From Magnetospirillum sp. WYHS-4 (lineage in GTDB: Bacteria; Pseudomonadota; Alphaproteobacteria; Rhodospirillales; GLO-3), in the NCBI GenBank assembly GCA_039908345.1, contig JAMOBD010000005.1, positions 14,273 through 78,272 of the forward strand: 64,000 nt of DNA, read 5' to 3'. Numbering within the stretch: the first letter of the stretch is position 1; every line of letters begins with the position of its first letter. The notes under the pieces were generated by a model, which worked only from the letters and a program-made list of their open reading frames with translations, had not been told where the DNA came from and ran no database searches. Of this stretch, positions 6,134-63,900 are shown one piece after another. The translations under genes and the position numbers were made by a program.

Positions 6134-6906
6134 TCGTCGCGCAGCACGCACCAGACCGGCGTATGGTCCGAAGCCTTCTCGAGAGCCCGTGGCCTGCGGT
6201 CGATTCCCGCGGTTTCCAGACGGTCGGCGGCCTGCGGGGACAACAGAAGGTGATCGATGCGCAGCCCCTCGTCGCGAGCGAATGCCCCGGCCCGGTAGTC
6301 CCACCAGCTATGCCGCCCCGCCTCCGGATGCAGGACGCGGAAGGCGTCGATCAGTCCCAGGTGCAAAAGCCGGCGGTAGGCCGCCCGGCTTTCCTGCCGG
6401 CAGAGCGCGTCGTTGGCCCAAACGATGGGATCATGGACATCCCGGTCTTCAGGCGCCACGTTCCAGTCGGCGCCCAACACCAACGGCACCTCCTCCTCCA
6501 GCAGACCGGCCACATGGACTTTCAGCCGCTCCAGCCAACCCAGCTTGTAGGCGAACTTGTCGGTGCCCACCGGGTTGCCGTTGGGAACATAGAGCGAGGC
6601 CACCCGCAGGCCACTCGTCTCCACTTCCAGGTAGCGGGCCTGTTCGTCGGTCTCGTCACCCGGCAGGCGATCGCGCAGAACCCGCAAGGGATGGCGCGAC
6701 AAGACGGCGACGCCATTGTAGGTCCTCTGCCCCGCCACCGCTGCCCGAAAGCCCAGGGATTCCATCTCCAGGAAAGGGAAGCCGTCGGCTTCGCACTTGA
6801 TCTCCTGCAGCAGGAGCACATCCGGCGCGGCCTCCCGCAGCCAGTCCAGCAGGATGGGCAGGCGGGCCCTTACCGAATTGACGTTCCATGTGGCGATGCG
6901 AATCAT
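6115..6906 (-). CDS. xthA: Exodeoxyribonuclease III
   Basis: 263 aa. MIRIATWNVNSVRARL..LLLQEIK and the C-terminal SDHTPVW are typical of the ExoIII/EEP family. Confidence 0.9.
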   Translation of the reverse strand: MIRIATWNVNSVRARLPILLDWLREAAPDVLLLQEIKCEADGFPFLEMESLGFRAAVAGQRTYNGVAVLSRHPLRVLRDRLPGDETDEQARYLEVETSGLRVASLYVPNGNPVGTDKFAYKLGWLERLKVHVAGLLEEEVPLVLGADWNVAPEDRDVHDPIVWANDALCRQESRAAYRRLLHLGLIDAFRVLHPEAGRHSWWDYRAGAFARDEGLRIDHLLLSPQAADRLETAGIDRRPRALEKASDHTPVWCVLRDESNSGL

Positions 6907-26947: not shown

Positions 26948-27652
26948 TCAGGTCAAGGTCCGGCCGCCGCAGCGGCAGCGGTTGCGGCCGGACCGCTTGG
27001 CTTCGTAAAGCGCCTGATCCGCGGCGCGGATGGCGGCGTCGACGTCGGCGGCACCGTCCAGACGAGCCAGGCCGAAGCTCATGGTGATGGGGATCGGGGC
27101 GTCCGCGTGAACGAATCCCAGGTTCTCCACGTTGCCCCGGAGTTTCTCGGCGGCGACCAGGCCGTGGTCAAGGTCGGTTTCGGGAAGAAGGATCAGGAAC
27201 TCTTCTCCGCCCCAGCGAGCCACCGAGTCGTAGTCGCGCAAGTTTCCGGACAATACCCGGGCCACGGCGACCAGTGCCGCGTCGCCGACATCGTGGCCCC
27301 AGGTGTCGTTAAGCCGCTTGAAGCCGTCGACGTCACCCATCAACAGGGTAAAAGCCGGGCTTCCCCTCTGGGCCCGGTTGGCTTCGGCGCGCAGCTTGTC
27401 CCACATCCAACGCCGGTTGGGCAGCCCGGTCAGCGGATCGGTCTGGGACGACCGCCGAAGGGCGATGTTCGCTTCCTTGACCTGGACCTGCATCCGGTCG
27501 CTGATCCGGGACAGTTTGACGATCCGACGGTTGAGATGGATATAGCGTTCCGCCAAATCCTTCACTTCCGCCATCAAGGGATGGCGCTTCCATTCGGCAT
27601 TGGCCTCCAACGCGGCCAGCCAGCGACGCGTCCGTTCCTCCTCATCCGCCAA
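26948..27652 (-). CDS. siaD: Diguanylate cyclase (GGDEF), SiaD-like
   Basis: GGEEF active site (ARWGGEEFLILL) and an N-terminal coiled coil. It is the last gene of a siaA-B-C-D-ordered operon. Confidence 0.8.
   Translation of the reverse strand: MADEEERTRRWLAALEANAEWKRHPLMAEVKDLAERYIHLNRRIVKLSRISDRMQVQVKEANIALRRSSQTDPLTGLPNRRWMWDKLRAEANRAQRGSPAFTLLMGDVDGFKRLNDTWGHDVGDAALVAVARVLSGNLRDYDSVARWGGEEFLILLPETDLDHGLVAAEKLRGNVENLGFVHADAPIPITMSFGLARLDGAADVDAAIRAADQALYEAKRSGRNRCRCGGRTLT
26957..26994. terminator. GC-rich hairpin (11-bp perfect stem ggtccggccgc / gcggccggacc, 16-nt loop) at the convergent esterase/siaD junction
   Basis: Read directly from the sequence. It lies inside the last ~15 codons of siaD and 11 nt after the esterase stop. 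No clear T-tract is present. Confidence 0.4.
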
Positions 27653-27656
27653 GGCG

Positions 27657-28037
27657 TCAGATCTCCTTGGTGAGGATGTTGAAGGGTAGGGCTACGTCCT
27701 CCTTGAATTCCTCGGCCATTTCGACCGCGCGGTCGTTCTCGGGGTCGCAATACCAGTTCACCGTGGCGCTACGGCCCTTGCGCGACACCTGGTCCAGCAT
27801 GTCGAGCAGGTCCATCATGCACTTGATGGTGCTGGTGTTCAGATAGCTGAGATCGACCTCCAGCCGGATCGGCTTGCGTTCCTCGGCCAGGAAGGTCGCC
27901 ACGCCGTCGAGGATCGGTTCGTAGAATTCATACGAGTTCTCGGGATAGGATTCGCCCCGGATTTCCAGAACACCCGCCCCCCAATCGAAATGGATCAAAG
28001 GCGTCGAGGCGGTCGCGTCGCGGTGGATGTTGTTCAT
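27657..28037 (-). CDS. siaC: SiaC-like DUF1987 protein
   Basis: 126 aa. TPLIHFDWGAGVLEIRGESYPENSYEFYEPILD..L..YLNTSTIKC is the DUF1987 signature. Confidence 0.8.
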   Translation of the reverse strand: MNNIHRDATASTPLIHFDWGAGVLEIRGESYPENSYEFYEPILDGVATFLAEERKPIRLEVDLSYLNTSTIKCMMDLLDMLDQVSRKGRSATVNWYCDPENDRAVEMAEEFKEDVALPFNILTKEI

Positions 28038-28048
28038 CTTCTTCCCCT

Positions 28049-28591
28049 TCAGATGACGGCGCGCAGGCTGAAGAAGGCTTGGCGGTCATTGACCGGCCGC
28101 ACCAGGTATTCCAAGGGCGAGGTGGCAATCCGCGCGATATGGATCAGTCCCAGGCCGGCCGATCCGCCGTCGATGCGCGGCGTGCGCAGCCGCTCTTTGT
28201 ACAGCGCCTTCAGTTCCAGCTTGTCCAAGCCGCGCAGGTGCTCGATCCGCCCGGTGAGCGCCGGCACGTCCTCGCTGAGAACGATGTTGCCGGACGAGAC
28301 CACGTAGCGTTCGTTCTCGCGCCCGATCACGACGATCGAAGAGTTGGCGGTCAAGAAGTCCGTATCTGTTTCGAGATTCTTGTTCGTATAGTTACGGATA
28401 TTCTGCATCTGCTCGATGTAGACCGAAAGAACGTCCGTGGTCGATGTCTTGGTGGCATCTTCGTTTTCCATGTATCTTTTCACCGCGTTGCCGAGTTCCT
28501 CGATGAGGGTTTTCGAGAAGGCGCCGGCGAAACAGATCATGATGTCCCGCTCGGCGAGTTGATTCCTGAGGTCGTAGAGATCGGTCCTCAT
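28049..28591 (-). CDS. siaB: SiaB-like protein kinase / partner-switch component
   Basis: 180 aa. It sits between SiaA-like and SiaC-like genes. C-terminal GGSAGLGLIHIARIA resembles the ATP-lid of GHKL-type anti-sigma kinases. Confidence 0.65.
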   Translation of the reverse strand: MRTDLYDLRNQLAERDIMICFAGAFSKTLIEELGNAVKRYMENEDATKTSTTDVLSVYIEQMQNIRNYTNKNLETDTDFLTANSSIVVIGRENERYVVSSGNIVLSEDVPALTGRIEHLRGLDKLELKALYKERLRTPRIDGGSAGLGLIHIARIATSPLEYLVRPVNDRQAFFSLRAVI

Positions 28592-30630
28592 GCTTCGTCC
28601 CCCCTGTCATCCCCTGTTACACGGAACCCGACGAGGGTGATGTCGTCCCTCTGCGGGTACTTCCCCTGCCATTCGGCGAGTTGTCGTTCGAAGACGACGG
28701 CCTGTTCGGCCATCGGCAGGCCGCCGTGCGCGGCCACAAGGTCGTGAAAGCGCCGCCGTCCGAAGGGCAGGCCGCGTTCGCCTCCCGACTGATCCAGATA
28801 GCCATCGCTGACCATGTAGAAGGATTGTCCCGCCGCCAGCGCCACCTCGTGGGTGGCGAAGGCGGGTGCCGCGCCGGAACGTCGATAGCCGATGCTGCGC
28901 GGCGCTCCCTTGATGTCCCGTATCCCCTCGGCATCGGCAATGGTCAGGTCGATGCGGGCCCCGGCGAAGCGCAGGTGGCCGCCCCGCAAGTCGCAGCACA
29001 CCACGGCAAGGTCGAGACCATTGTCGAGGCTGTAGTCGGCGCTGCGGTTGAATCGGCTGCGCAACCGCGCGTTGACGGACGCGAGAAGCGCGCCCGGATC
29101 GTCGGGGCCGATTTCGCCCAGCGCCTGTTCCAGCACCGAATGGGCCGCCGTGCTCATGATCGCCCCCGGCACCCCGTGCCCCGTGCAGTCGGCCACGGCC
29201 AGCAGGAAGCCCCCGTCGGTCTGGGCATAGAACCAGAAGTCCCCCCCCACGATATCGCGCGGCTTCCAGAGCGCGAAATGATCCGGCAGGCGGGTCGCCA
29301 CCTCGTCGCGCGTCGGCATGACCGCCGACTGAATCATGCTGGCATAGCGGATGCCATCGGTGATCTTGCGGTTGGAATCCTGCAGTTCCTCGGTTCGCGC
29401 CCGGACCTTGTCCTCCAGGGTGCGCATGTAGTCCCTCACCTTTTCGGCCATGCGGTCGAAGGCGTTGGTGAGGTGACCGATCTCGTCGCGCCGATCGCTG
29501 TCGATGCGGATGTCGTAATTGCCCGCCGCAACGGCCTGCGTCGACCGCACCAGTTGCATGAGGGGGGTGAGGACCATGCGGTTGACCAGCAGCACGATCA
29601 CCAGGATGGCGACCAGCAAGGCCCCGGCCAAGCCACCGGCCACCGGCAGGAACCGCTGGAACCCCACCACCTTGTCGAAGTCCAGCACCGACATGTCGTA
29701 CCAGTCGATCTCGGACAGCCACGTCAAAGCGATCAGATGGCGCCGGCCTTCGATGCGGACCGCGAAGGAGGCTTCCTGAATGCGGCCCGCCGCCAAGTCG
29801 GCCATGGCCTGGCGGACCTTCTGGCGGTCGTCTTCGCGCTCGAACAACCGCCAAACCGTGGACCGTTCGGACTCCGACTTGAAGCGGGTCATGAAGTCGA
29901 TCAATTCCGCCCGCTGGTGGCCCTGGATACCGCCCCCGCCATCGAACAGGACGACATAGGCGCCTTCCTCGGAACTGGCGACGAAATCGCGGACGAACTG
30001 GGTCAGGTCGACGCCGGTCCCCGCCGCACCCACCCGGCGTCCGTCGGGCCGGGTCATCGCCACGTTCATCCAGAGCTTGGTAACGTGCAATGCCTTGTCG
30101 GTATCGATGTTGAGGTTGTAAGGCGCTGGCGAATTCAGGGTCTTGAAGAACCACTTGTCGCGCGGTTCATTGGCGTGGACCGTATCGACCAACTCCTTGC
30201 CGGCATACTTGTCTTCGGCATCGTTGTAGAAGTAGTGGCCGGTCCTGGCGGAGACCACGAACCACGCGCGGGAGGACAGAATATCCCGGAAACTTTCCAG
30301 TTCCGCCAGGGCCCGCCGCCGCAATTCCGGATTTTCCTCGTTTTCCGCCCAATCCTGCAACAGGGGAGACAGGGCCATCTTGCGGGCCAAGGCCAGTTCG
30401 CGGGACATGGTCGCCATCAGGCGTTCCTTGTGCCACTGCACATGGCGCAGGGCAAAGTAGCTGCCCAGCCGTTCGGCGACGGTTCCGGTCACCAGGTACA
30501 GCGAAGCCATGGCAACCAGCACGAAAACCAGCCAGATGGCCGTCATCACCAACACGGTTCGCCCGCGCAGACCCAGGCCGGAAATACCGGTGGCCGGCTT
30601 TTCCAAGGCGACGGAATCCGTCTCGGTCAT
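28588..30630 (-). CDS. siaA: Membrane PP2C-type (SpoIIE-like) phosphatase with periplasmic domain and HAMP, SiaA-like
   Basis: Two TM segments flank a ~300-aa periplasmic region. HAMP region MQLVRSTQAVAAGNYDIRID..DEIGHLTNAFDRMA. PP2C region GGDFWFY..VADCTGHGVPGAIMS. Start taken at MTETD (30630). Confidence 0.8.
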   Translation of the reverse strand: MTETDSVALEKPATGISGLGLRGRTVLVMTAIWLVFVLVAMASLYLVTGTVAERLGSYFALRHVQWHKERLMATMSRELALARKMALSPLLQDWAENEENPELRRRALAELESFRDILSSRAWFVVSARTGHYFYNDAEDKYAGKELVDTVHANEPRDKWFFKTLNSPAPYNLNIDTDKALHVTKLWMNVAMTRPDGRRVGAAGTGVDLTQFVRDFVASSEEGAYVVLFDGGGGIQGHQRAELIDFMTRFKSESERSTVWRLFEREDDRQKVRQAMADLAAGRIQEASFAVRIEGRRHLIALTWLSEIDWYDMSVLDFDKVVGFQRFLPVAGGLAGALLVAILVIVLLVNRMVLTPLMQLVRSTQAVAAGNYDIRIDSDRRDEIGHLTNAFDRMAEKVRDYMRTLEDKVRARTEELQDSNRKITDGIRYASMIQSAVMPTRDEVATRLPDHFALWKPRDIVGGDFWFYAQTDGGFLLAVADCTGHGVPGAIMSTAAHSVLEQALGEIGPDDPGALLASVNARLRSRFNRSADYSLDNGLDLAVVCCDLRGGHLRFAGARIDLTIADAEGIRDIKGAPRSIGYRRSGAAPAFATHEVALAAGQSFYMVSDGYLDQSGGERGLPFGRRRFHDLVAAHGGLPMAEQAVVFERQLAEWQGKYPQRDDITLVGFRVTGDDRGDEA

Positions 30631-30828
30631 GGATGGTCCCCAACCCGGCGGAAGTGGAAGATCTGCCCCCGTCAGCCATAGCCCAATACGCGCCCGGCGA
30701 CAAGACCGCCGGGGAGGATCATCGACCACTCAACCATATGATATATTTAAGGTTATATATAATGCCATAGGCGCCATCTTCGCCTGCTCTAAACATCGTC
30801 GTTCGGCGCCGTTCCCCCGCCGTGGAAT

Positions 30829-56706: not shown

Positions 56707-58533
56707 ATGGCAAAGAAGCAGTATAGAGACGGAGACGTCATTTTCCGCGAGGGCGACCCGAGCGACAGCGCCTATGTCATAGAGGGCGGTGCCGTCGAGC
56801 TTTCCAAGGCCAGCGACCGCGAGCCGGTACAGCTTGCGCGCCTGAAGACGGGCGAGATGTTCGGGGAGATGGGCATCCTGGACGGCAGCGGCCGCAGCGC
56901 CACGGCCGTCGCCGCCGGCAAGGTGAAAGTCCGCGAGATCGGGCGCGACGAATTCCTGAGGCAATTGGAAACCGATTCGGCCATGGCGCTATCCATCATC
57001 AGGAAACTGGTTCAGAGGCTCCGGGCCGCCGACGAAATGCTGGCCCAGGGTTCCGCCAAACAGGAAGTGGCGCGGCTGCGCCGCGATCCGACGCGGGCGA
57101 CCCGTCCCGGCCTGTTCGGACGCCTGTTCGGTGGCGGCGGCACGCCGACCGGGCGCATCGAAGTCCGCATCTCCCAGTTGCCCGGCGAAAGGGGTGCCGA
57201 ACTGACCAAGCTGCTGGCCGACACCTTGGGGCGGAGCAAGGGCCTTTCCGTGCGGCCCATCAAGGAGATCCTGGCGGTCGATGCCTCGGTCGAGCCTCCC
57301 CGCCGCCTGGCGATCGCCGCCGAAACCGGGCGGCAATGGCTGGGCCCTTTGAAGGCGGACCTGCTGATCTGGGGCGAATTTCCCGCCACCGGTGCCAGCG
57401 TGCATCTGCGTTTCGTATCAGCCCTGGTCGATCGCGCCGACCGCGCCGGGCTGTTCTCGACCGGCACGACGCTGGTCCTACCGGCCAATTTCCCGCCCGA
57501 GTTCGGCCATCTGCTGGCCGCCGTCGCCCTGGCCGCCACGGTAGTCGGTGACGAGACGCGCACGGCGGCGCAGCGCCAAGCTCTGGCCGAAGCCTTGGAA
57601 GCCGCCCAGCCCCTGATGCGGCAACTGCCCAAGGAACTGGTATCCAAGGAACGGGCGGCGATCCAGAACTGCTACGGCAACGCGGTGGCGACGCTCGCCA
57701 CCCTTGGCGGTCCGGCCGAGATGTACCAGGTGGCGGCCCATGCCTACCGTTCCGCCCTGGAGGGCCTGTCCAGGGACCATGCGCCGCTCGACTGGGCCAT
57801 GGCCCAGCGCAACCTGGGCTGCGTGCTGATGGCCCTGGCCGAGCGCACCAACGACTCCGAGACCTTGGGTGCCGCCGCCAACCTGTTCCGTTCCGTCCTG
57901 CAGATACTCACCCGGGCCGAACAGCCCTTCGAATGGGCCACCACCCAGGCCCGCCTGGGGCAGGTGCTCTACCGCCTCGATTTAAGGACCGGGGACGTCG
58001 ATCTGCTCAAGGAAGCGCTGGCCGCCCTGCAAGGCGCCTTGCAGGTGATCGGGCGTCATGACGACCCCTTGCGCTGGGCCGATCTGTTGAACAGCTTCGC
58101 CCAGACCGCGCAGGTGCTGGGTGGCGAGTTGCGCCATATCGAACTGTTGGAAAGGGCGGTGTCGGCCTGCGAGTCCGCCCTCCAGGTGCGGACACGGACG
58201 GAACATCCTCAACTTTTCGCGGCCACCCAGAACAACCGGGGATCGGCCCTGTTCCTGCTGGGCCGCCTGACCGGGCGCATGGAGCCCGTCGCCGGGGCGG
58301 CCGACGCCTTCCGGCAGGCCTGCGAGGTCTACCGCACCGAGGGCGCCGAACGCATGGCGGCCATCGCCGAGAAGAACCTCGCCCATGTGGAAGAGACCCT
58401 GCCCGCCCGCCGCTCCGAGCGTCGCGACCCCCCCGCCGGCCGCCGCGCCTGGTTCGAAGACGAGGAATCCGACCCGGCCCCGGCACCCGCGCCTCGCCCC
58501 CTGACGATCAGCCCGGAGGATAAGGTACGGTGA
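56707..58533 (+). CDS. Cyclic-nucleotide-binding domain protein fused to an unassigned middle domain and TPR-like repeats
   Basis: N-terminal cNMP-binding fold ([20 protein letters not shown]...[10 protein letters not shown].....RSATAVA). The C-terminal half carries repeated P(L/F).WA..Q.NLG units. Confidence 0.75.
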
Positions 58534-61231
58534 ACGAGAACGTCGCCCCTTCCCCCGGCCGGCTGTGCACGGCGATGCGGCCGCCCTGGCGTTCGACGAT
58601 GCTGCGGCAAATGGCCAGCCCCAAGCCGCTGCCCGACGGATTGCCGGTGCCGCCCGCCGCCAGCTGGTAGAATTTCTCGAAGATCTTGTCCTGCAGATCG
58701 GGCTCGATGCCGGGGCCGTTGTCACGGACGAAGACCGCCGCCTCGCCCTCGCCCGGCTCCATCCACATTTCCACCCGCCCGGTGCCCGGCCCGCAGACCT
58801 TCTGGGCATTGGACAACAGGTTGATGACCACCCTCGTCAGATGGTCGCGGTCGGCCCGCACCAGGGGCGAGGGAGCAGGCAGGCGCAAGTCGAGACCGAC
58901 ATCTCTTTCCTCGAATATCCCCCTCAGCGAAGCGGCAGCGTCGTTCAGCAGGCCGGCCAAGTCCAGGTCTTCCAGATGCCAATCCATCCGGCCGGCCTCG
59001 ATCTTCGCCAGGTCGAGCACCTGATTGACCAGGCGCGTGAGACGCTCGCTCTCGCGGATGACGATGGACAAGAACTCGCCCCGCTGGGTGGCGTCCAGTT
59101 CCGGGTTGTCGAACAGGATCTCGGAAAAGGAGCGGATCGAGGTCAAGGGCGTGCGCAACTCGTGGGTGACGGTGGATAGGAACTCGTCCTTCATGCGGTC
59201 CAGTTCCTTGAGTCGCTGGTTGGCGGCCTGCAGTTCCCGTGTGGCGGCTTCGAGTTCCTGGGATTTGTGTTCGAGCTGCCGGCTGTATTCGAGCACCTGG
59301 GAGGTCTCGTCCAGCACCTCCATGATCTCCTCGATGCCGATGCCCTCGCCCTGCACCGTGGTGGCGATCATCACCCGCGCCGAAGCCGCCCCGATGGCTC
59401 CGGCTAACAGCCGTTCCACATATTGCACCAGGTCGGCGTCGGCCTCGGTCCGCTTGTCGATGTCGAAGCCGTGCCGGCGGCCGAAGTCGGCGAAGGCCTG
59501 CTGGGCCCTTTCGCGGCCGATGAAGCGGGCCGCCAGTTCCCGAAGGTCGGCAACCGCGGCCTTGCCCCGCCAAGCTCCCAGGCCACGCCCCGATTCGGAC
59601 TGGCTGAAGACCTCGACGAACAGGGTGGCCTGGATACGTTCGATGGTGCTTTTGCTTCCTGCCAGCGAGACCGCAACATAGCCGCCGACATTGGCGGCAA
59701 GGCTCCAGAACAGGGAGTGCGAGATGGAATCCAGCCCCTCCAGCCCGAACAGGGCGTAGGGCTTGAGCAGGTGCAGCCCGAAGGGCCCCAGATCGACGAT
59801 GGATTCCGGCAGCCATCCCGACTTGGCGAAGGAAGGCAGCAACAGGGTGTAGGCCCAGACGGCGAATCCGGCCGACAGTCCGGCCACCGCCCCCTGGCGC
59901 GAACCGCCCTTCCAGTAGATGCCGCCCAGGATGGCAGGGGCGAACTGGGCGGCGGCCGCGAACGAGACCAAGCCGATGGTGACCAGGGCATAAGACTCGC
60001 CGATCAGCCGGAAATAGAGATACCCCAGCAGAATGATGAACAGTATGGCGCCCCGGCGGATACCCAGCAGCAGGCCGGACAGGTCGCTCCGCTCCGACAG
60101 GTGCAGGCGGCCGAAGCGCAACAGCACCGGCATGATCAGGTCGTTGCAGACCATGGTGGATAGGGCGATGGTCTCGACGATCACCATGCCGGTCGCCGCC
60201 GACAGGCCCCCGATGAACACCAGCAGCGCCAGATAGGGAGCGCCCTCGGCCAAGGGCAGGGCGAGCACGAAGGTGTCGGTGTCCAACGCCCCGCCGGGAA
60301 AGCGCAGCAAGCCGCCCAAGGTGATCGGCAGGACGAACAGGTTTATGGCGAAAAGGTAGAGCGGGAACAGCCAGACGGCCTTTTCCAGATGGCGCTCGTC
60401 CACGTTCTCCACCACCGTGACCTGGAACTGGCGGGGCAGGAAGATGATCGCCGCCATGGACAGCAGGGTCAGCGTGATCCAATTGGGACCGATCGCCTCG
60501 ACGCTCATCAGGCGGGCCAGTTGCGGTTGGGCTGCCGCCTGGCGAAACAACTCGCCGGGACTGCCGAAGATGCCGAAGGCGACGAATGCCCCGACGGCCA
60601 GAAAGGCCAGCAGCTTGACGATGGATTCGAAGGCGATGGCGGCGACCATCCCCTCGTGGTGCTCGGTGGCGTCGATATGGCGGGTGCCGAACAGGATGGT
60701 GAATAGGGCCAGCACCATGGCCACGAGCAGGGCGGTGTCCTCGAAGGGACTGGCCGACATGGGATGGGCGGCGGCCAGGTCCGGGTAGTGCAGCAACACC
60801 GCGAAGCTGGAGGACACGGCTTTCAACTGCAAGGAGATGTACGGCATGATCCCGACCACCGCGATCACCGTCACCAAGCCGCCGAGCAGGTGGCTCTTGC
60901 CGTAGCGCGACGATACGAAGTCGGCGATGGAGGTGATGTGGTGCACCTTGCTGATGCGGACGATCTTGCGGATCACCGCCCAACCGAGGGCGAACATCAA
61001 AGTGGGGCCCAGGTAGATGGGCAAAAAACCCAATCCGGTCGACGCGGCACGGCCGACACTGCCGTAGAAGGTCCAGGAGGTGCAATAGACGGCGATCGAC
61101 AGGGCGTAGATGGAGGAATGGCCGATCAGACTGCGGCCGCGGTCGGCGCGGCGGTCTCCGTAATAGGCAATGGCGAACAGCAGGCTCAGGTAGCCGAAGG
61201 AGGTGAGAAGGATCAGCCAACCCGGCAGCAC
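58508..61231 (-). CDS. Sodium:solute symporter (SSF/SLC5)-STAC-histidine kinase fusion (CbrA/CrbS-like sensor)
   Basis: 907 aa. ~13 TM SSF domain. STAC-like linker ([32 protein letters not shown]). H-box [11 protein letters not shown]. HATPase ([19 protein letters not shown]). No receiver domain. Confidence 0.85.
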
Positions 61232-61244
61232 CGTCGCCTCCCCG

Positions 61245-61493
61245 TCAGACCGAGAAGTCGAGGGGCGGCGGCTCGCGCGGCGGCGGCACCGCAGGCCGGC
61301 TGCGCATGGCCCAAGCCAGCAGGCCGATCAACAGCCCCCACGCCCCGAAGACGTAGACATAGAGCAGGGGAATACCGGCCAGAACGGTCTCCGGCCCGCG
61401 GTCGAACAGGCGCAGAACCAGGGGGCTGAATAGCGCCAAGCCCAACAGGAAGACCGCCGCCAGACGTTCGCCGGTCGCTTCTTCCCGCCACAT
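61245..61493 (-). CDS. Small two-TM membrane protein preceding the SSF-kinase
   Basis: 82 aa with two hydrophobic segments (LAAVFLLGLALFSPLVL, IPLLYVYVFGAWGLLIGLLAWA). Tightly packed between the response regulator and the kinase. Confidence 0.6.
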   Translation of the reverse strand: MWREEATGERLAAVFLLGLALFSPLVLRLFDRGPETVLAGIPLLYVYVFGAWGLLIGLLAWAMRSRPAVPPPREPPPLDFSV

Positions 61494-61494
61494 C

Positions 61495-61863
61495 TCAGGT
61501 GCCCAGCAGGTCGCGCACCCGCTGGGTCAGTTCGCGGGTGGAAAAGGGCTTGGTGACATAAGCCGTGGCTCCGAGCGCCATTCCTTTCTCCTTGTCCACT
61601 TCGCGCCCGCGGGCGGTAAGCATGATGACCTGCACGTCCTGCCAGGCCGGATTGGCACGGATTTGCTGGCAGACATCATAGCCGTCGCGCTTGGGGATCA
61701 TCACGTCGAGCAGCACCAGATCGGGCACCCGATCGGCGATGGCCTTCAGGGCCTCTTCCCCGTCGCGCGCCACCCGCACGTCGAAACCCGCCTGCCTCAT
61801 AAGGAATTCCAGCGACAGCACGATGTTCGGTTCGTCGTCCACCACCAACACGGATTTCGCCAT
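61495..61863 (-). CDS. Single-domain (CheY-like) response regulator
   Basis: VLVVDDEP, phospho-acceptor LVLLDVMIP, and ML(T)ARG..KP. Confidence 0.9.
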   Translation of the reverse strand: MAKSVLVVDDEPNIVLSLEFLMRQAGFDVRVARDGEEALKAIADRVPDLVLLDVMIPKRDGYDVCQQIRANPAWQDVQVIMLTARGREVDKEKGMALGATAYVTKPFSTRELTQRVRDLLGT

Positions 61864-62079: not shown

Positions 62080-62163
62080 ATGAAGCGGATGGGAACGGGA
62101 TTGGCGCTCGGCGTGGCCGCGGTGGCCCTGCTGCTGCGGCGGCGGGCGTCCGGCCTACAGTAA
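62080..62163 (+). CDS. 27-codon mini-ORF encoding a signal-peptide/TM-like sequence (MKRMGTGLALGVAAVALLLRRRASGLQ)
   Basis: GGGAG lies 6 nt upstream of ATG 62080. A hydrophobic core follows basic residues. It ends at TAA 62161-62163, and the downstream low-complexity ORF continues in the +1 frame. Confidence 0.4.
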   Translation: MKRMGTGLALGVAAVALLLRRRASGLQ

Positions 62164-62203
62164 CGGCGGGGCCGGCTACGGGCCGGCAACCTGGGGACCG
62201 GCG

Positions 62204-62686
62204 ATGCCGGGTCGGATGGGAATGCCGCAGGCGGGCTACGGCTACCGGCCGATGGCCTATAATCCGGGGACTCCCTATGCGATGGTGCCGCAGCGGCCGG
62301 CTCCCGTGCCGGTGATGGTCGGCAACGGTCCGCATCCTTCGATGATGGGGGGCGCGGTTCCCTATGGCTACGGCATGCCCTACGCCTATCGGGCGCCCTA
62401 CGGCTTCGGGCCAACCGCCCCCATGATGGCGGCGCCCCAGCCCATGTTGCCCTATCCCCAGGCGCAGCCCCGACTGGTCGGCTGGCCCGGACCGGCCGGT
62501 TTCGGCACCATGCCCATGGCCGGCAGCGGCGCGGTCAGCCGCAACCTGCCGCCTTACGCCATGGCGGTGCCGGAAGGTCCCTACGGCTACCCGTTTGGAA
62601 CGCCCTACGGGCAGTATCCCTGGGCCATGCCGGCACCAGGCCCCTATTATGGACCGGGACCGGGCTGGGGCCCGTCGCGCTGGTAA
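62204..62686 (+). CDS. P/G/Y/M/A-rich low-complexity protein
   Basis: 160 aa from the first ATG. No Lys, Asp, Ile or Cys and a single Glu. Repeated GYG, PYG and MP units. The frame is open and compositionally similar from 62084 but has no ATG, GTG or TTG before 62204. Confidence 0.55.
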   Translation: MPGRMGMPQAGYGYRPMAYNPGTPYAMVPQRPAPVPVMVGNGPHPSMMGGAVPYGYGMPYAYRAPYGFGPTAPMMAAPQPMLPYPQAQPRLVGWPGPAGFGTMPMAGSGAVSRNLPPYAMAVPEGPYGYPFGTPYGQYPWAMPAPGPYYGPGPGWGPSRW

Positions 62687-62699
62687 GCGGAAAGGGCCT

Positions 62700-62906
62700 T
62701 TAGTTGGTGGCGGAACCGGCGGTCAACTCGTTGATCGCCCAGGCTACCGCCGCCCAGCGGTTGGACAACTGGCGGTCGCCGCTGGCGCGCGAACGGTGTG
62801 CCTGTTCCACGGCAACGGCAAAGGCCCCATCGCCATAGCGGCCAATCAGGGAACTGGCCCCTTCCCGGACCTCGGTCTGGCTGACGCCGTGATGCATGAA
62901 GGTCAT
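62700..62906 (-). CDS. Small hypothetical protein, 68 aa (paralog 1)
   Basis: GGAG lies 7 nt upstream. Third positions are G/C-rich. It shares 20/62 identical residues in an ungapped alignment with the adjacent 66-aa ORF. Confidence 0.6.
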   Translation of the reverse strand: MTFMHHGVSQTEVREGASSLIGRYGDGAFAVAVEQAHRSRASGDRQLSNRWAAVAWAINELTAGSATN

Positions 62907-62963
62907 GTGACATCTCCATCAGGTGTCGGACGAATCGACACCGCGAAGATGTGGCGACCTTGG

Positions 62964-62979
62964 TTAAGGGCGGGTTAAG
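62964..62979 (-). promoter_or_regulatory. CtrA-box-like motif; the minus strand reads TTAACCCGCCCTTAAC (TTAA-N7-TTAAC)
   Basis: Read directly from the sequence. It lies 57 nt upstream of the paralog-1 start, and its 5' half-site contains the TAA stop of paralog 2. Confidence 0.5.
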
Positions 62980-63175
62980 CCCCCTGGTGCGTCATGTCGC
63001 CGATAGCGGCGGCCAAGGCGCTCCACTGGAGCGATACGGCGGCGTTGCCGCGGGCGCGGATCTGGGCGGCGCGATCCAGCGCGTAGCGATAGGCGTGGCG
63101 GCCGTGTTCCTGAATCAGCGCCATGGCGCTGTCGCGCATGTCGGGGTCCATGAAGCGATGACGGAGAGTCTGCAT
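62975..63175 (-). CDS. Small hypothetical protein, 66 aa (paralog 2)
   Basis: AAGGA lies ~8 nt upstream. Third positions are G/C-rich. It is co-linear with paralog 1 (shared H6, R14, LI20-21, G25, RA40-41, G43, W51, AI57-58, T62). Confidence 0.6.
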   Translation of the reverse strand: MQTLRHRFMDPDMRDSAMALIQEHGRHAYRYALDRAAQIRARGNAAVSLQWSALAAAIGDMTHQGA

Positions 63176-63238
63176 GAGGATCGTCCTTGTCCTGTCTTTT
63201 CCATGTCTCTTTCCATGGTCGACAGTGGTGGACCGCGA

Positions 63239-63254
63239 TTAAGGCGCGGTTAAG
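63239..63254 (-). promoter_or_regulatory. CtrA-box-like motif; the minus strand reads TTAACCGCGCCTTAAT (TTAA-N7-TTAA)
   Basis: Read directly from the sequence. It lies 63 nt upstream of the paralog-2 start, and its 5' half-site contains the TAA stop of the ABC ATPase gene. It is 275 nt from the other box. Confidence 0.45.
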
Positions 63255-63900
63255 GCACGATGAACTTTCCATGACGCAGTTCGACCCGGCGCGTCGCCAG
63301 TCGATCGACCACGCGCCGGTCGTGAGAGACCATCACCATGGCCTGGGGCAATCCCTCCAGAATGGCCAACAGCCGCTCCAGCGCCTTCTCGTCCAATGCG
63401 TTGGAGGGCTCGTCCAGCAACAGGACCTCGGGCCGCATGGACAGCACGGTCGCCAGGGTGACCAGCCGCTTCTCGCCCCCCGAAAGGCGGATCGCCACCC
63501 GGTCACGGAACTCCGGGATGCCCAGGGCCTCCAGGGTCTCGTCCACCCGCCGCGCCGCCTCGGCACGCCCCAGGCCCAGGTTGAGCGGTCCGAAAGCCAC
63601 GTCCTCGGCAACCGTCGGGCAGAACAACTGGTCGTCGGGGTCCTGGAACAGCAGGCCGGCGCGGGCGCGCACCTCGATGAAATCCTCCTCGGACCGCCGC
63701 TCCCGCCCGAAGGCCGTCACCGTTCCCGCCTGGGGATGCAGCAGGCCCACCATCAAGTGCAGCAAGGTGGTCTTGCCGGTGCCGTTGGCCCCCACCACCG
63801 CCACCCGTTCTCCCGCTGCCAGGGCAAAATCGAGGCCGGCCAGCACCGGCCGGCCGGAGTCATAGGAGAAGCCCAGACCGGAAAGGGAAAACAGGCTCAC
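63250..63900 (-). CDS. cbiO: ABC transporter ATP-binding protein, cobalt/ECF CbiO-like
   Basis: Walker A GANGTGKTT, signature LSGGEKR, Walker B LLLDEP and FQDPDDQLF. The GTG start overlaps the upstream stop (GTGA). Confidence 0.8.
   Translation of the reverse strand: MSLFSLSGLGFSYDSGRPVLAGLDFALAAGERVAVVGANGTGKTTLLHLMVGLLHPQAGTVTAFGRERRSEEDFIEVRARAGLLFQDPDDQLFCPTVAEDVAFGPLNLGLGRAEAARRVDETLEALGIPEFRDRVAIRLSGGEKRLVTLATVLSMRPEVLLLDEPSNALDEKALERLLAILEGLPQAMVMVSHDRRVVDRLATRRVELRHGKFIVP

Follow-up and report, generated by a model that had tools for sequence, protein, structure and literature searches.

Tandem small genes with their own predicted CtrA-type sites in Magnetospirillum sp. WYHS-4

Introduction

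CtrA is a response regulator of the OmpR family, and TTAA-N7-TTAAC is its textbook binding site across the Alphaproteobacteria; to our knowledge, no other regulator has a site of this kind. Two small proteins serve as points of comparison in the following, namely Osp, which is receiver-domain-like, and the helix-turn-helix protein SciP. The genes of both have a CtrA site, SciP being found in Caulobacter and Osp in R. sphaeroides, and they provide a precedent for small modulators of the CtrA pathway that are themselves driven by CtrA (PMC9430884). The CtrA consensus is written as TTAA-N7-TTAA(C), and activating sites are located near -35 (PMC6180460, PMC4046655). The CtrA-activated promoters of class II flagellar genes and ccrM in Caulobacter and of fla2 and osp in R. 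sphaeroides all contain the full site directed toward the gene. In the CtrA-dependent osp promoter, the validated site lies 54 bp from the ATG (PMC9430884). M. magneticum and other Rhodospirillales do not need CtrA for growth; in these bacteria it controls flagellar motility (PMC8116508). For the CtrA sites of M. magneticum, a single sentence in a review gives a 6-bp rather than a 7-bp spacing (PMC6180460).

Here, we analysed a window of 64 kb (the whole stretch of DNA under study, to which all coordinates refer unless a lineage is named) of Magnetospirillum sp. WYHS-4, an uncultured organism represented by a metagenome-assembled genome and mentioned in the literature in magnetosome papers only. 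Two adjacent small genes of this window, p1 and p2, resemble the CtrA-activated genes in that each has its own predicted site in the same orientation toward the gene, and in that the host belongs to an order with CtrA-governed motility (PMC8116508). The predicted sites are found 56-62 nt from the start codons, compared with 54 bp at osp. In contrast to known CtrA targets, p1 and p2 are not flagellar, chemotaxis or cell-cycle genes, and they have no recognisable -10 element. Like SciP and Osp, they encode small proteins and carry a CtrA site, here a predicted one, but they have no sequence or fold relationship to either and are predicted to form two-helix hairpins. With the uncharacterised family DUF6961 (PF22284, about 60-70 aa), on which our literature search found nothing, p1 and p2 share the length, the two-helix layout and the core pattern. 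Six distant members of the family that were inspected are, however, singletons without a box, whereas p1 and p2 are paired and preceded by boxes.

Results

The gene pair p1/p2

The locus consists of the following elements:

62975-63175, minus strand: p1 (H7841_03340), 66 aa, hypothetical protein at NCBI
62700-62906, minus strand: p2 (H7841_03335), 68 aa, hypothetical protein at NCBI and paralog of p1
63184..63188, minus strand: Shine-Dalgarno-like AAGGA of p1, 9 nt before the p1 ATG, read from the sequence
62914..62917, minus strand: Shine-Dalgarno GGAG of p2, 8 nt before the p2 ATG, read from the sequence
63239..63253, minus strand: box 1 (p1), predicted CtrA-type site, exact pattern match, ending 62 nt before the p1 ATG
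62964..62978, minus strand: box 2 (p2), predicted CtrA-type site, exact pattern match, ending 56 nt before the p2 ATG
63250..63900, minus strand: cbiO-like ECF/cobalt transporter ATPase gene, stop codon TAA at 63250-63252
62080..62686, plus strand: gene for a P/G/Y/M-rich protein with an N-terminal hydrophobic segment, convergent to p2

An ungapped alignment of p1 and p2 gave 21 identities over 66 positions, and the Smith-Waterman score of 96 was far above that of shuffled sequences (25.8 +/- 5.1; none of 2000 shuffles scored as high). BLASTP returned no alignment between the two proteins, probably due to their composition and the filter settings. Since the shuffle-calibrated score is significant, p1 and p2 are true paralogs despite the blank BLASTP result, as the initial annotation of this DNA had claimed. 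Its further observation that each gene has its own Shine-Dalgarno sequence and G/C-rich third codon positions was also confirmed, with a GC3 of 0.81-0.85 for the two genes of the window.

Close orthologs were recovered from metagenomes only: P0003 (L001-L003), P0004 (L004-L005) and P0005 (L006-L009). Together with the window, these define the four lineages compared in this study (window; L001-L003; L004-L005; L006-L009). The close p1/p2 subfamily was detected neither in 185,579 GTDB species genomes (two scans) nor in IMG/VR viral contigs nor, using DNA and protein searches, in PLSDB plasmids. One match of the metagenome scan, L016, was in spurious antisense orientation and was discarded. The GGAG sequence of p2 is also present in L001, L004 and L006, and the GC3 of the window genes and their orthologs ranges from 0.76 to 0.94, compared with a GC2 of about 0.5. 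Between lineages, p2 has a dN/dS of 0.22-0.34 at a dS of 0.5-0.7. We regard p1 and p2 as real genes because of these dN/dS and GC3 values and the Shine-Dalgarno sequences. At the level of the sequence comparison, purifying selection on the small genes is shown, which bears out the view of conserved and not spurious ORFs, with orthologs in three further lineages.

The CbiO proteins are 70-79% identical between lineages, which indicates that the lineages are distinct but related taxa. Orthologs of p1 are 61% (L001) and 55% (L006) identical to the window protein, and those of p2 75-79% (L001, L004) and 50% (L006). In all, identity amounts to 55-61% within the p1 group and 50-79% within the p2 group, compared with 32-57% between the groups. 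As p1 and p2 thus each group across lineages, the duplication predates the split of the sampled lineages. The best reading of these comparisons is that promoter and ORF were duplicated together as a tandem module a long time ago. This is in agreement with the proposal of a duplicated unit of box and small ORF, given the paralogous proteins and the same cis-element at 62 and 56 nt.

Boxes in the window and in related lineages

A pattern search of the 64 kb detected exactly two TTAA-N7-TTAA sites, at 62964-62978 and 63239-63253. The expected number was 0.00 in dinucleotide shuffles and 0.035 in a Markov-1 simulation, so that the earlier count, made by eye, holds. TTAA tetramers occur 13 times in the window, and four of them are located inside the two boxes, which lie 275 nt apart. 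On the coding strand, box 1 reads TTAACCGCGCCTTAAT (TTAACCGCGCCTTAA(T) with the next base) and box 2 reads TTAACCCGCCCTTAAC (TTAACCCGCCCTTAA(C) with the next base). The described match to the CtrA consensus could be verified, as both sites are exact TTAA-N7-TTAA and the p2 site matches the full TTAA-N7-TTAAC.

We compared seven independent promoters from the four lineages, namely those of p1 in the window, L001 and L006 and those of p2 in the window, L001, L004 and L006. In every one of them, TTAAC-N6-TTAA is present and points the same way with respect to the gene. The counterparts of box 1 are TTAACCGTGCCTTAAA (L001) and TTAACGGCCGCTTAACC (L006), and those of box 2 are TTAACCTGGAATTAAC (L001), TTAACTGCCCGTTAAC (L004) and TTAACTTCACGTTAAC (L006). 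The eight half-site positions are all invariant over the seven promoters at a dS of 0.5-0.7, and all seven 7-nt spacers differ from each other (CCGCGCC, CCGTGCC, CGGCCGC, CCCGCCC, CCTGGAA, CTGCCCG and CTTCACG). The flanks of the boxes are largely unalignable between lineages, and the p2 promoters were aligned by hand on the boxes since MAFFT misaligned them. The concentration of the tetramer is also found in the relatives: in L001, every one of the four TTAA in 4.1 kb belongs to a box, as do four of the five in the 8.2 kb of L006. The box is kept in seven promoters while the surrounding DNA diverges, which identifies the box itself as the constrained object. On this comparative evidence, the TTAA-N7-TTAA box is a conserved, selected cis-element and not a product of chance, and the combination of box and ORF is conserved in relatives (seven of seven promoters, four lineages).

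Three lineages place the box 56-57 nt from the ATG of p2. This spacing is not shared by all lineages, L006 having 79 and 99 nt between its boxes and the ATGs. A consensus scan found no sigma-70-like -10/-35 pair downstream of the boxes, and the seven promoter sequences did not yield a shared -10 element at a constant offset. A further sequence, TACTTCC, is located 2-3 nt before the box in the p2 promoters of L004 (4917-4928) and L006 (4220-4231). It is present in both p2 promoters with a non-coding upstream flank and absent where the corresponding stretch encodes the C-terminus of p1.

The box had also been described as fused to the stop codon of the upstream gene. For the window this is correct, as the stop of the cbiO-like gene (gtg cct TAA) lies inside the 5' half-site of box 1 and the stop of p1 (ggg gct TAA) inside that of box 2, but the fusion does not characterise the system. 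The p1 frame of L001 continues through the box (..ALTWN*) and ends at a stop codon in half-site 2. In L006, both boxes stand clear in intergenic DNA, 44 and 27 nt beyond the stop codons before them, and the box of L004 is found between divergent genes, where no gene precedes it on the same strand. Because the box persists whatever lies upstream, the fusion is incidental. We interpret the overlap as intergenic compaction in the WYHS-4/L001 branch, without a mechanistic role.

The leader of p2 contains an additional candidate element:

62910..62952, minus strand: possible p2 leader hairpin, RNA fold of -21.6 kcal/mol, z = -2.7

Its inner stem (GGUGUCG/CGACACC) encloses the loop AUUCGUC with a GANTC site, and its outer stem pairs with the Shine-Dalgarno sequence of p2. 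The counterpart in L001 (834-868; z = -2.5) differs from the window by two double-sided changes in the inner stem, and the p2 leader of L004 has no equivalent fold. The predicted hairpin is tentative and would require a transcription start that places it within the mRNA. The sequence GATTC (GANTC, a CcrM-type site) is kept in the hairpin loop of the window and L001 and is also present in L004.

Genomic neighbourhood

The genes p1 and p2 directly follow cbiO in the window, L001 and L006. The cbiO-like protein of the window matches Pfam ABC_tran (1e-29) and NCBIfam TIGR01166 cbiO (5e-56, below the cut-off of that model). In L006, the operon consists of cbiM, a cbiN-like gene, cbiQ and cbiO, followed by p1 and p2. 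A cobalamin riboswitch (RF00174, 103.9 bits) at 794-1013 heads this cbi operon, and the small genes of L006 come last in a cobalt transporter operon under B12 regulation. L004 has p2 alone, located between a divergent radical-SAM gene and the convergent P/G/Y/M-rich gene, which is followed by flgI-flgJ-flgN; the module is about 1 kb away from these flagellar genes.

The P/G/Y/M-rich gene adjoins p2 in three of the four lineages (window, L001 and L004). The encoded protein matches no known family in Pfam or PHROG, consists of approximately 23% Pro, 18% Gly, 11% Tyr and 10% Met, and ends with ...PSRW. In the window, its hydrophobic N-terminus MKRMGTGLALGVAAVALL is encoded in another reading frame than the remainder, and intact homologs of 205 and 255 aa are present in L001 and L004; judged from the reading frames, the window gene seems to be frameshifted, or its assembly to contain an indel, near 62125-62140. 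In L004, the stretch that separates the P/G/Y/M-rich gene from flgI (6162-6224) contains a box with one mismatch (TTTA-N7-TTAACC) that points toward the P/G/Y/M-rich gene, and a sigma-54-like TGGCAC-N5-TCGCA is located ahead of flgI.

Other annotated genes of the window have housekeeping and signalling functions and include sdh, NAD synthase and CysRS genes, a HK/REC pair and a Sia-like operon. The annotated part contains no flagellar, chemotaxis or CtrA-pathway genes, and ctrA is absent from the 64-kb window. About 1 kb from p2, a stretch of the minus strand (58508-61863) contains a gene for a 907-aa protein whose long N-terminal part passes the membrane several times and is joined to HisKA and HATPase_c domains; genes for an 82-aa membrane protein and a stand-alone receiver domain follow it. 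This arrangement is not found beside p2 in the other lineages. At 26948-30770 (minus strand), a SiaABCD-like c-di-GMP operon consists of a HAMP-PP2C phosphatase, DUF6272, SiaC and a GGDEF cyclase. Upstream of it lies a strikingly AT-rich quasi-palindrome, catatgatatatttaaggttatatataatg, which holds one of the rare TTAA tetramers of the window.

Protein family and predicted fold

Searches of p1 and p2 against Pfam, NCBIfam and PHROGs assigned neither protein to a family, and the DUF6961 Pfam model was not matched even at E <= 1. A match of p2 to the Pfam family DAO_C (E = 0.08) was spurious. A profile built from p1, p2 and two orthologs was used to search a library of 1.8 billion representatives and retrieved 57 proteins at E <= 1e-3, most of them 57-82 aa in length. 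G25, A28 and W51 are invariant in this family, which follows the pattern A..LI..(H/Y)G..A...A..RA...R..GD......W..(I/V)A.AI..L. DUF6961 was matched by 18 of the 45 aligned family sequences, and one of the proteins, P0034, scored above the gathering threshold (32.3 bits; cut-off 27). The hhalign comparison of the close subfamily with the distant set gave a probability of 99.4% (E = 4e-21), a value that is partly circular as the distant set was picked with the same profile. As the two proteins do not match the DUF6961 model itself, we file them as a divergent relative: on these profile comparisons they are a divergent branch distantly related to DUF6961 and not formal members. The initial annotation had not recognised a family, which remains correct for direct Pfam and NCBIfam matches, but profile methods link the proteins to DUF6961.

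AlphaFold2 models of p1 (pLDDT 85.5; helices 11-41 and 45-65) and p2 (pLDDT 84.7; helices 10-42 and 45-67) confidently predict a two-helix hairpin for both, in agreement with the suggestion of tiny helical proteins. No significant match to these models was found among solved (PDB) or viral structures, and a sequence-profile search of the PDB with the p1/p2 family returned noise only. A phospho-accepting His hairpin of the DHp or Hpt-like type was considered and rejected, position 24 being H, Y or F. The wider family includes PAS-domain fusions and tandem two-copy proteins. The hairpin is rich in alanine and has a conserved Trp, features that suggest a module for protein binding, and our best guess is that p1 and p2 are small protein-binding modulators.

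In six distant family members that were inspected, no TTAA-N7-TTAA box was found even when one mismatch was allowed, and the same six are singletons in unrelated contexts. The missing box indicates that it was acquired by the p1/p2 subfamily and is not a trait of the family. Among the distant DUF6961-like genes (L017, L021, L011 and L019), two are located beside SNase-family nuclease genes, one of these loci with an S24 repressor gene and the other with an integrase gene. Such genes also lie beside cysteinyl-tRNA synthetase genes in two cases and just downstream of a Nramp transporter gene in one.

Discussion

By analogy with described promoters, the sequence of the boxes, their orientation and their distance from the ATG fit a CtrA-activated promoter. 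From the consensus match, the osp-like geometry and the role of CtrA in the Rhodospirillales, we infer that phosphorylated CtrA (CtrA~P) activates p1 and p2. According to this model, p1 and p2 would be small cytoplasmic proteins with a helical-hairpin fold, from a lineage-restricted branch with a relationship to DUF6961, and each copy would have kept its own promoter with an upstream element in the form of a direct repeat, TTAAC-N6-TTAA(C). Phosphorylated CtrA would bind this repeat in the -35 region and switch on p1 and p2 separately, presumably as an activator rather than a repressor. The two genes would thereby join the CtrA regulon, which in Rhodospirillales chiefly concerns motility; the link of p1 and p2 to motility is itself conditional on this assignment. 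We assign a probability of roughly 0.6 to a duplicated promoter-plus-ORF module in which each copy has its own CtrA-activated promoter, and p1 and p2 are probably lineage-specific additions to the motility-linked CtrA gene set. Several findings count against the CtrA assignment: the N6 spacing given for M. magneticum, the missing -10/-35 elements, the distances in L006 and the lack of nearby flagellar genes in the window. The adjacency to cbiO in three lineages, furthermore, hints at another functional link.

The boxes may be functional and still be bound by another factor, such as an OmpR/PhoB-type regulator that recognises an 11-bp-phased direct repeat, which would leave the genes outside the CtrA regulon. 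The footprint in the seven promoters demonstrates constraint on TTAAC-N6-TTAA and does not name the protein responsible; the review sentence on 6-bp spacing in M. magneticum (PMC6180460) and the extra TACTTCC in the p2 promoters of L004 and L006, outside the CtrA consensus, point in the same direction. We nevertheless consider a different regulator unlikely, given that TTAA-N7-TTAAC is the textbook CtrA site (PMC4046655, PMC6180460) and that orientation and ATG distance match a validated CtrA promoter. Slightly less credit is due to the idea that p1 and p2 belong functionally to the cbiMNQO cobalt/nickel ECF operon, as accessory or regulatory subunits expressed mostly by read-through under the B12 riboswitch, with the box as a secondary input or a roadblock. 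In its favour are the order cbiO-p1-p2 in three lineages with differing downstream flanks and the cobalamin riboswitch at the head of the L006 operon, and no terminator-like site was found between cbiO and p1; one distant family member, moreover, lies just downstream of a Nramp metal transporter. In L004, however, p2 and its box stand alone by flagellar genes, and the surrounding 5 kb contain no cbi genes, so that the box works without the cbi operon. The proteins, in addition, contain no Cys and no conserved His (H, Y or F at position 24), which makes metal binding unlikely, and other distant members have unrelated neighbours.

The pair of motifs could finally be a neutral by-product, left over from the duplication or arising from TAA stop codons in an AT-poor genome, with spurious ORFs next to it. 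It is true that each box of the window holds a stop codon, which explains one TAA per box, and that high-GC genomes yield many spurious ORFs. Yet the boxes are kept in L004 and L006, where no stop codon is involved, with eight invariant half-site positions in seven promoters at dS 0.5-0.7, and the low dN/dS of 0.22-0.34 as well as the 57 significant relatives across the library with invariant G25, A28 and W51 speak against spurious ORFs. On these comparisons the neutral explanation is largely refuted, and we regard it as highly improbable.

Starting from the favoured CtrA-activated module, a more specific and rather doubtful proposal is that p1 and p2 are undescribed CtrA-induced hairpin modulators of a signalling or flagellar component; one magnetotactic lineage of the Rhodospirillales would then have taken a DUF6961-type domain into its CtrA regulon. 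Parallels may be seen in NepR, in Spo0E or in an Osp/SciP-style feedback on CckA-ChpT-CtrA. A role of p1 and p2 as regulators is a conjecture; if the modulator proposal were true, it would provide the first functional handle on DUF6961.

Both the predicted type of CtrA-regulon promoter and the DUF family are already known, and the finding is sound but ordinary. It has no bearing on a long-standing open question, as the cis-element and the likely regulator are textbook. The locus is a clean, small example of a promoter and a gene that were duplicated together as a module, and of a binding site that stayed in place as the adjacent genes closed in on it and finally had their stop codons within it. 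If confirmed, the finding would extend the CtrA regulon of magnetotactic spirilla by two lineage-specific small proteins, p1 and p2, and would give a branch of the uncharacterised DUF6961 its first regulatory context.
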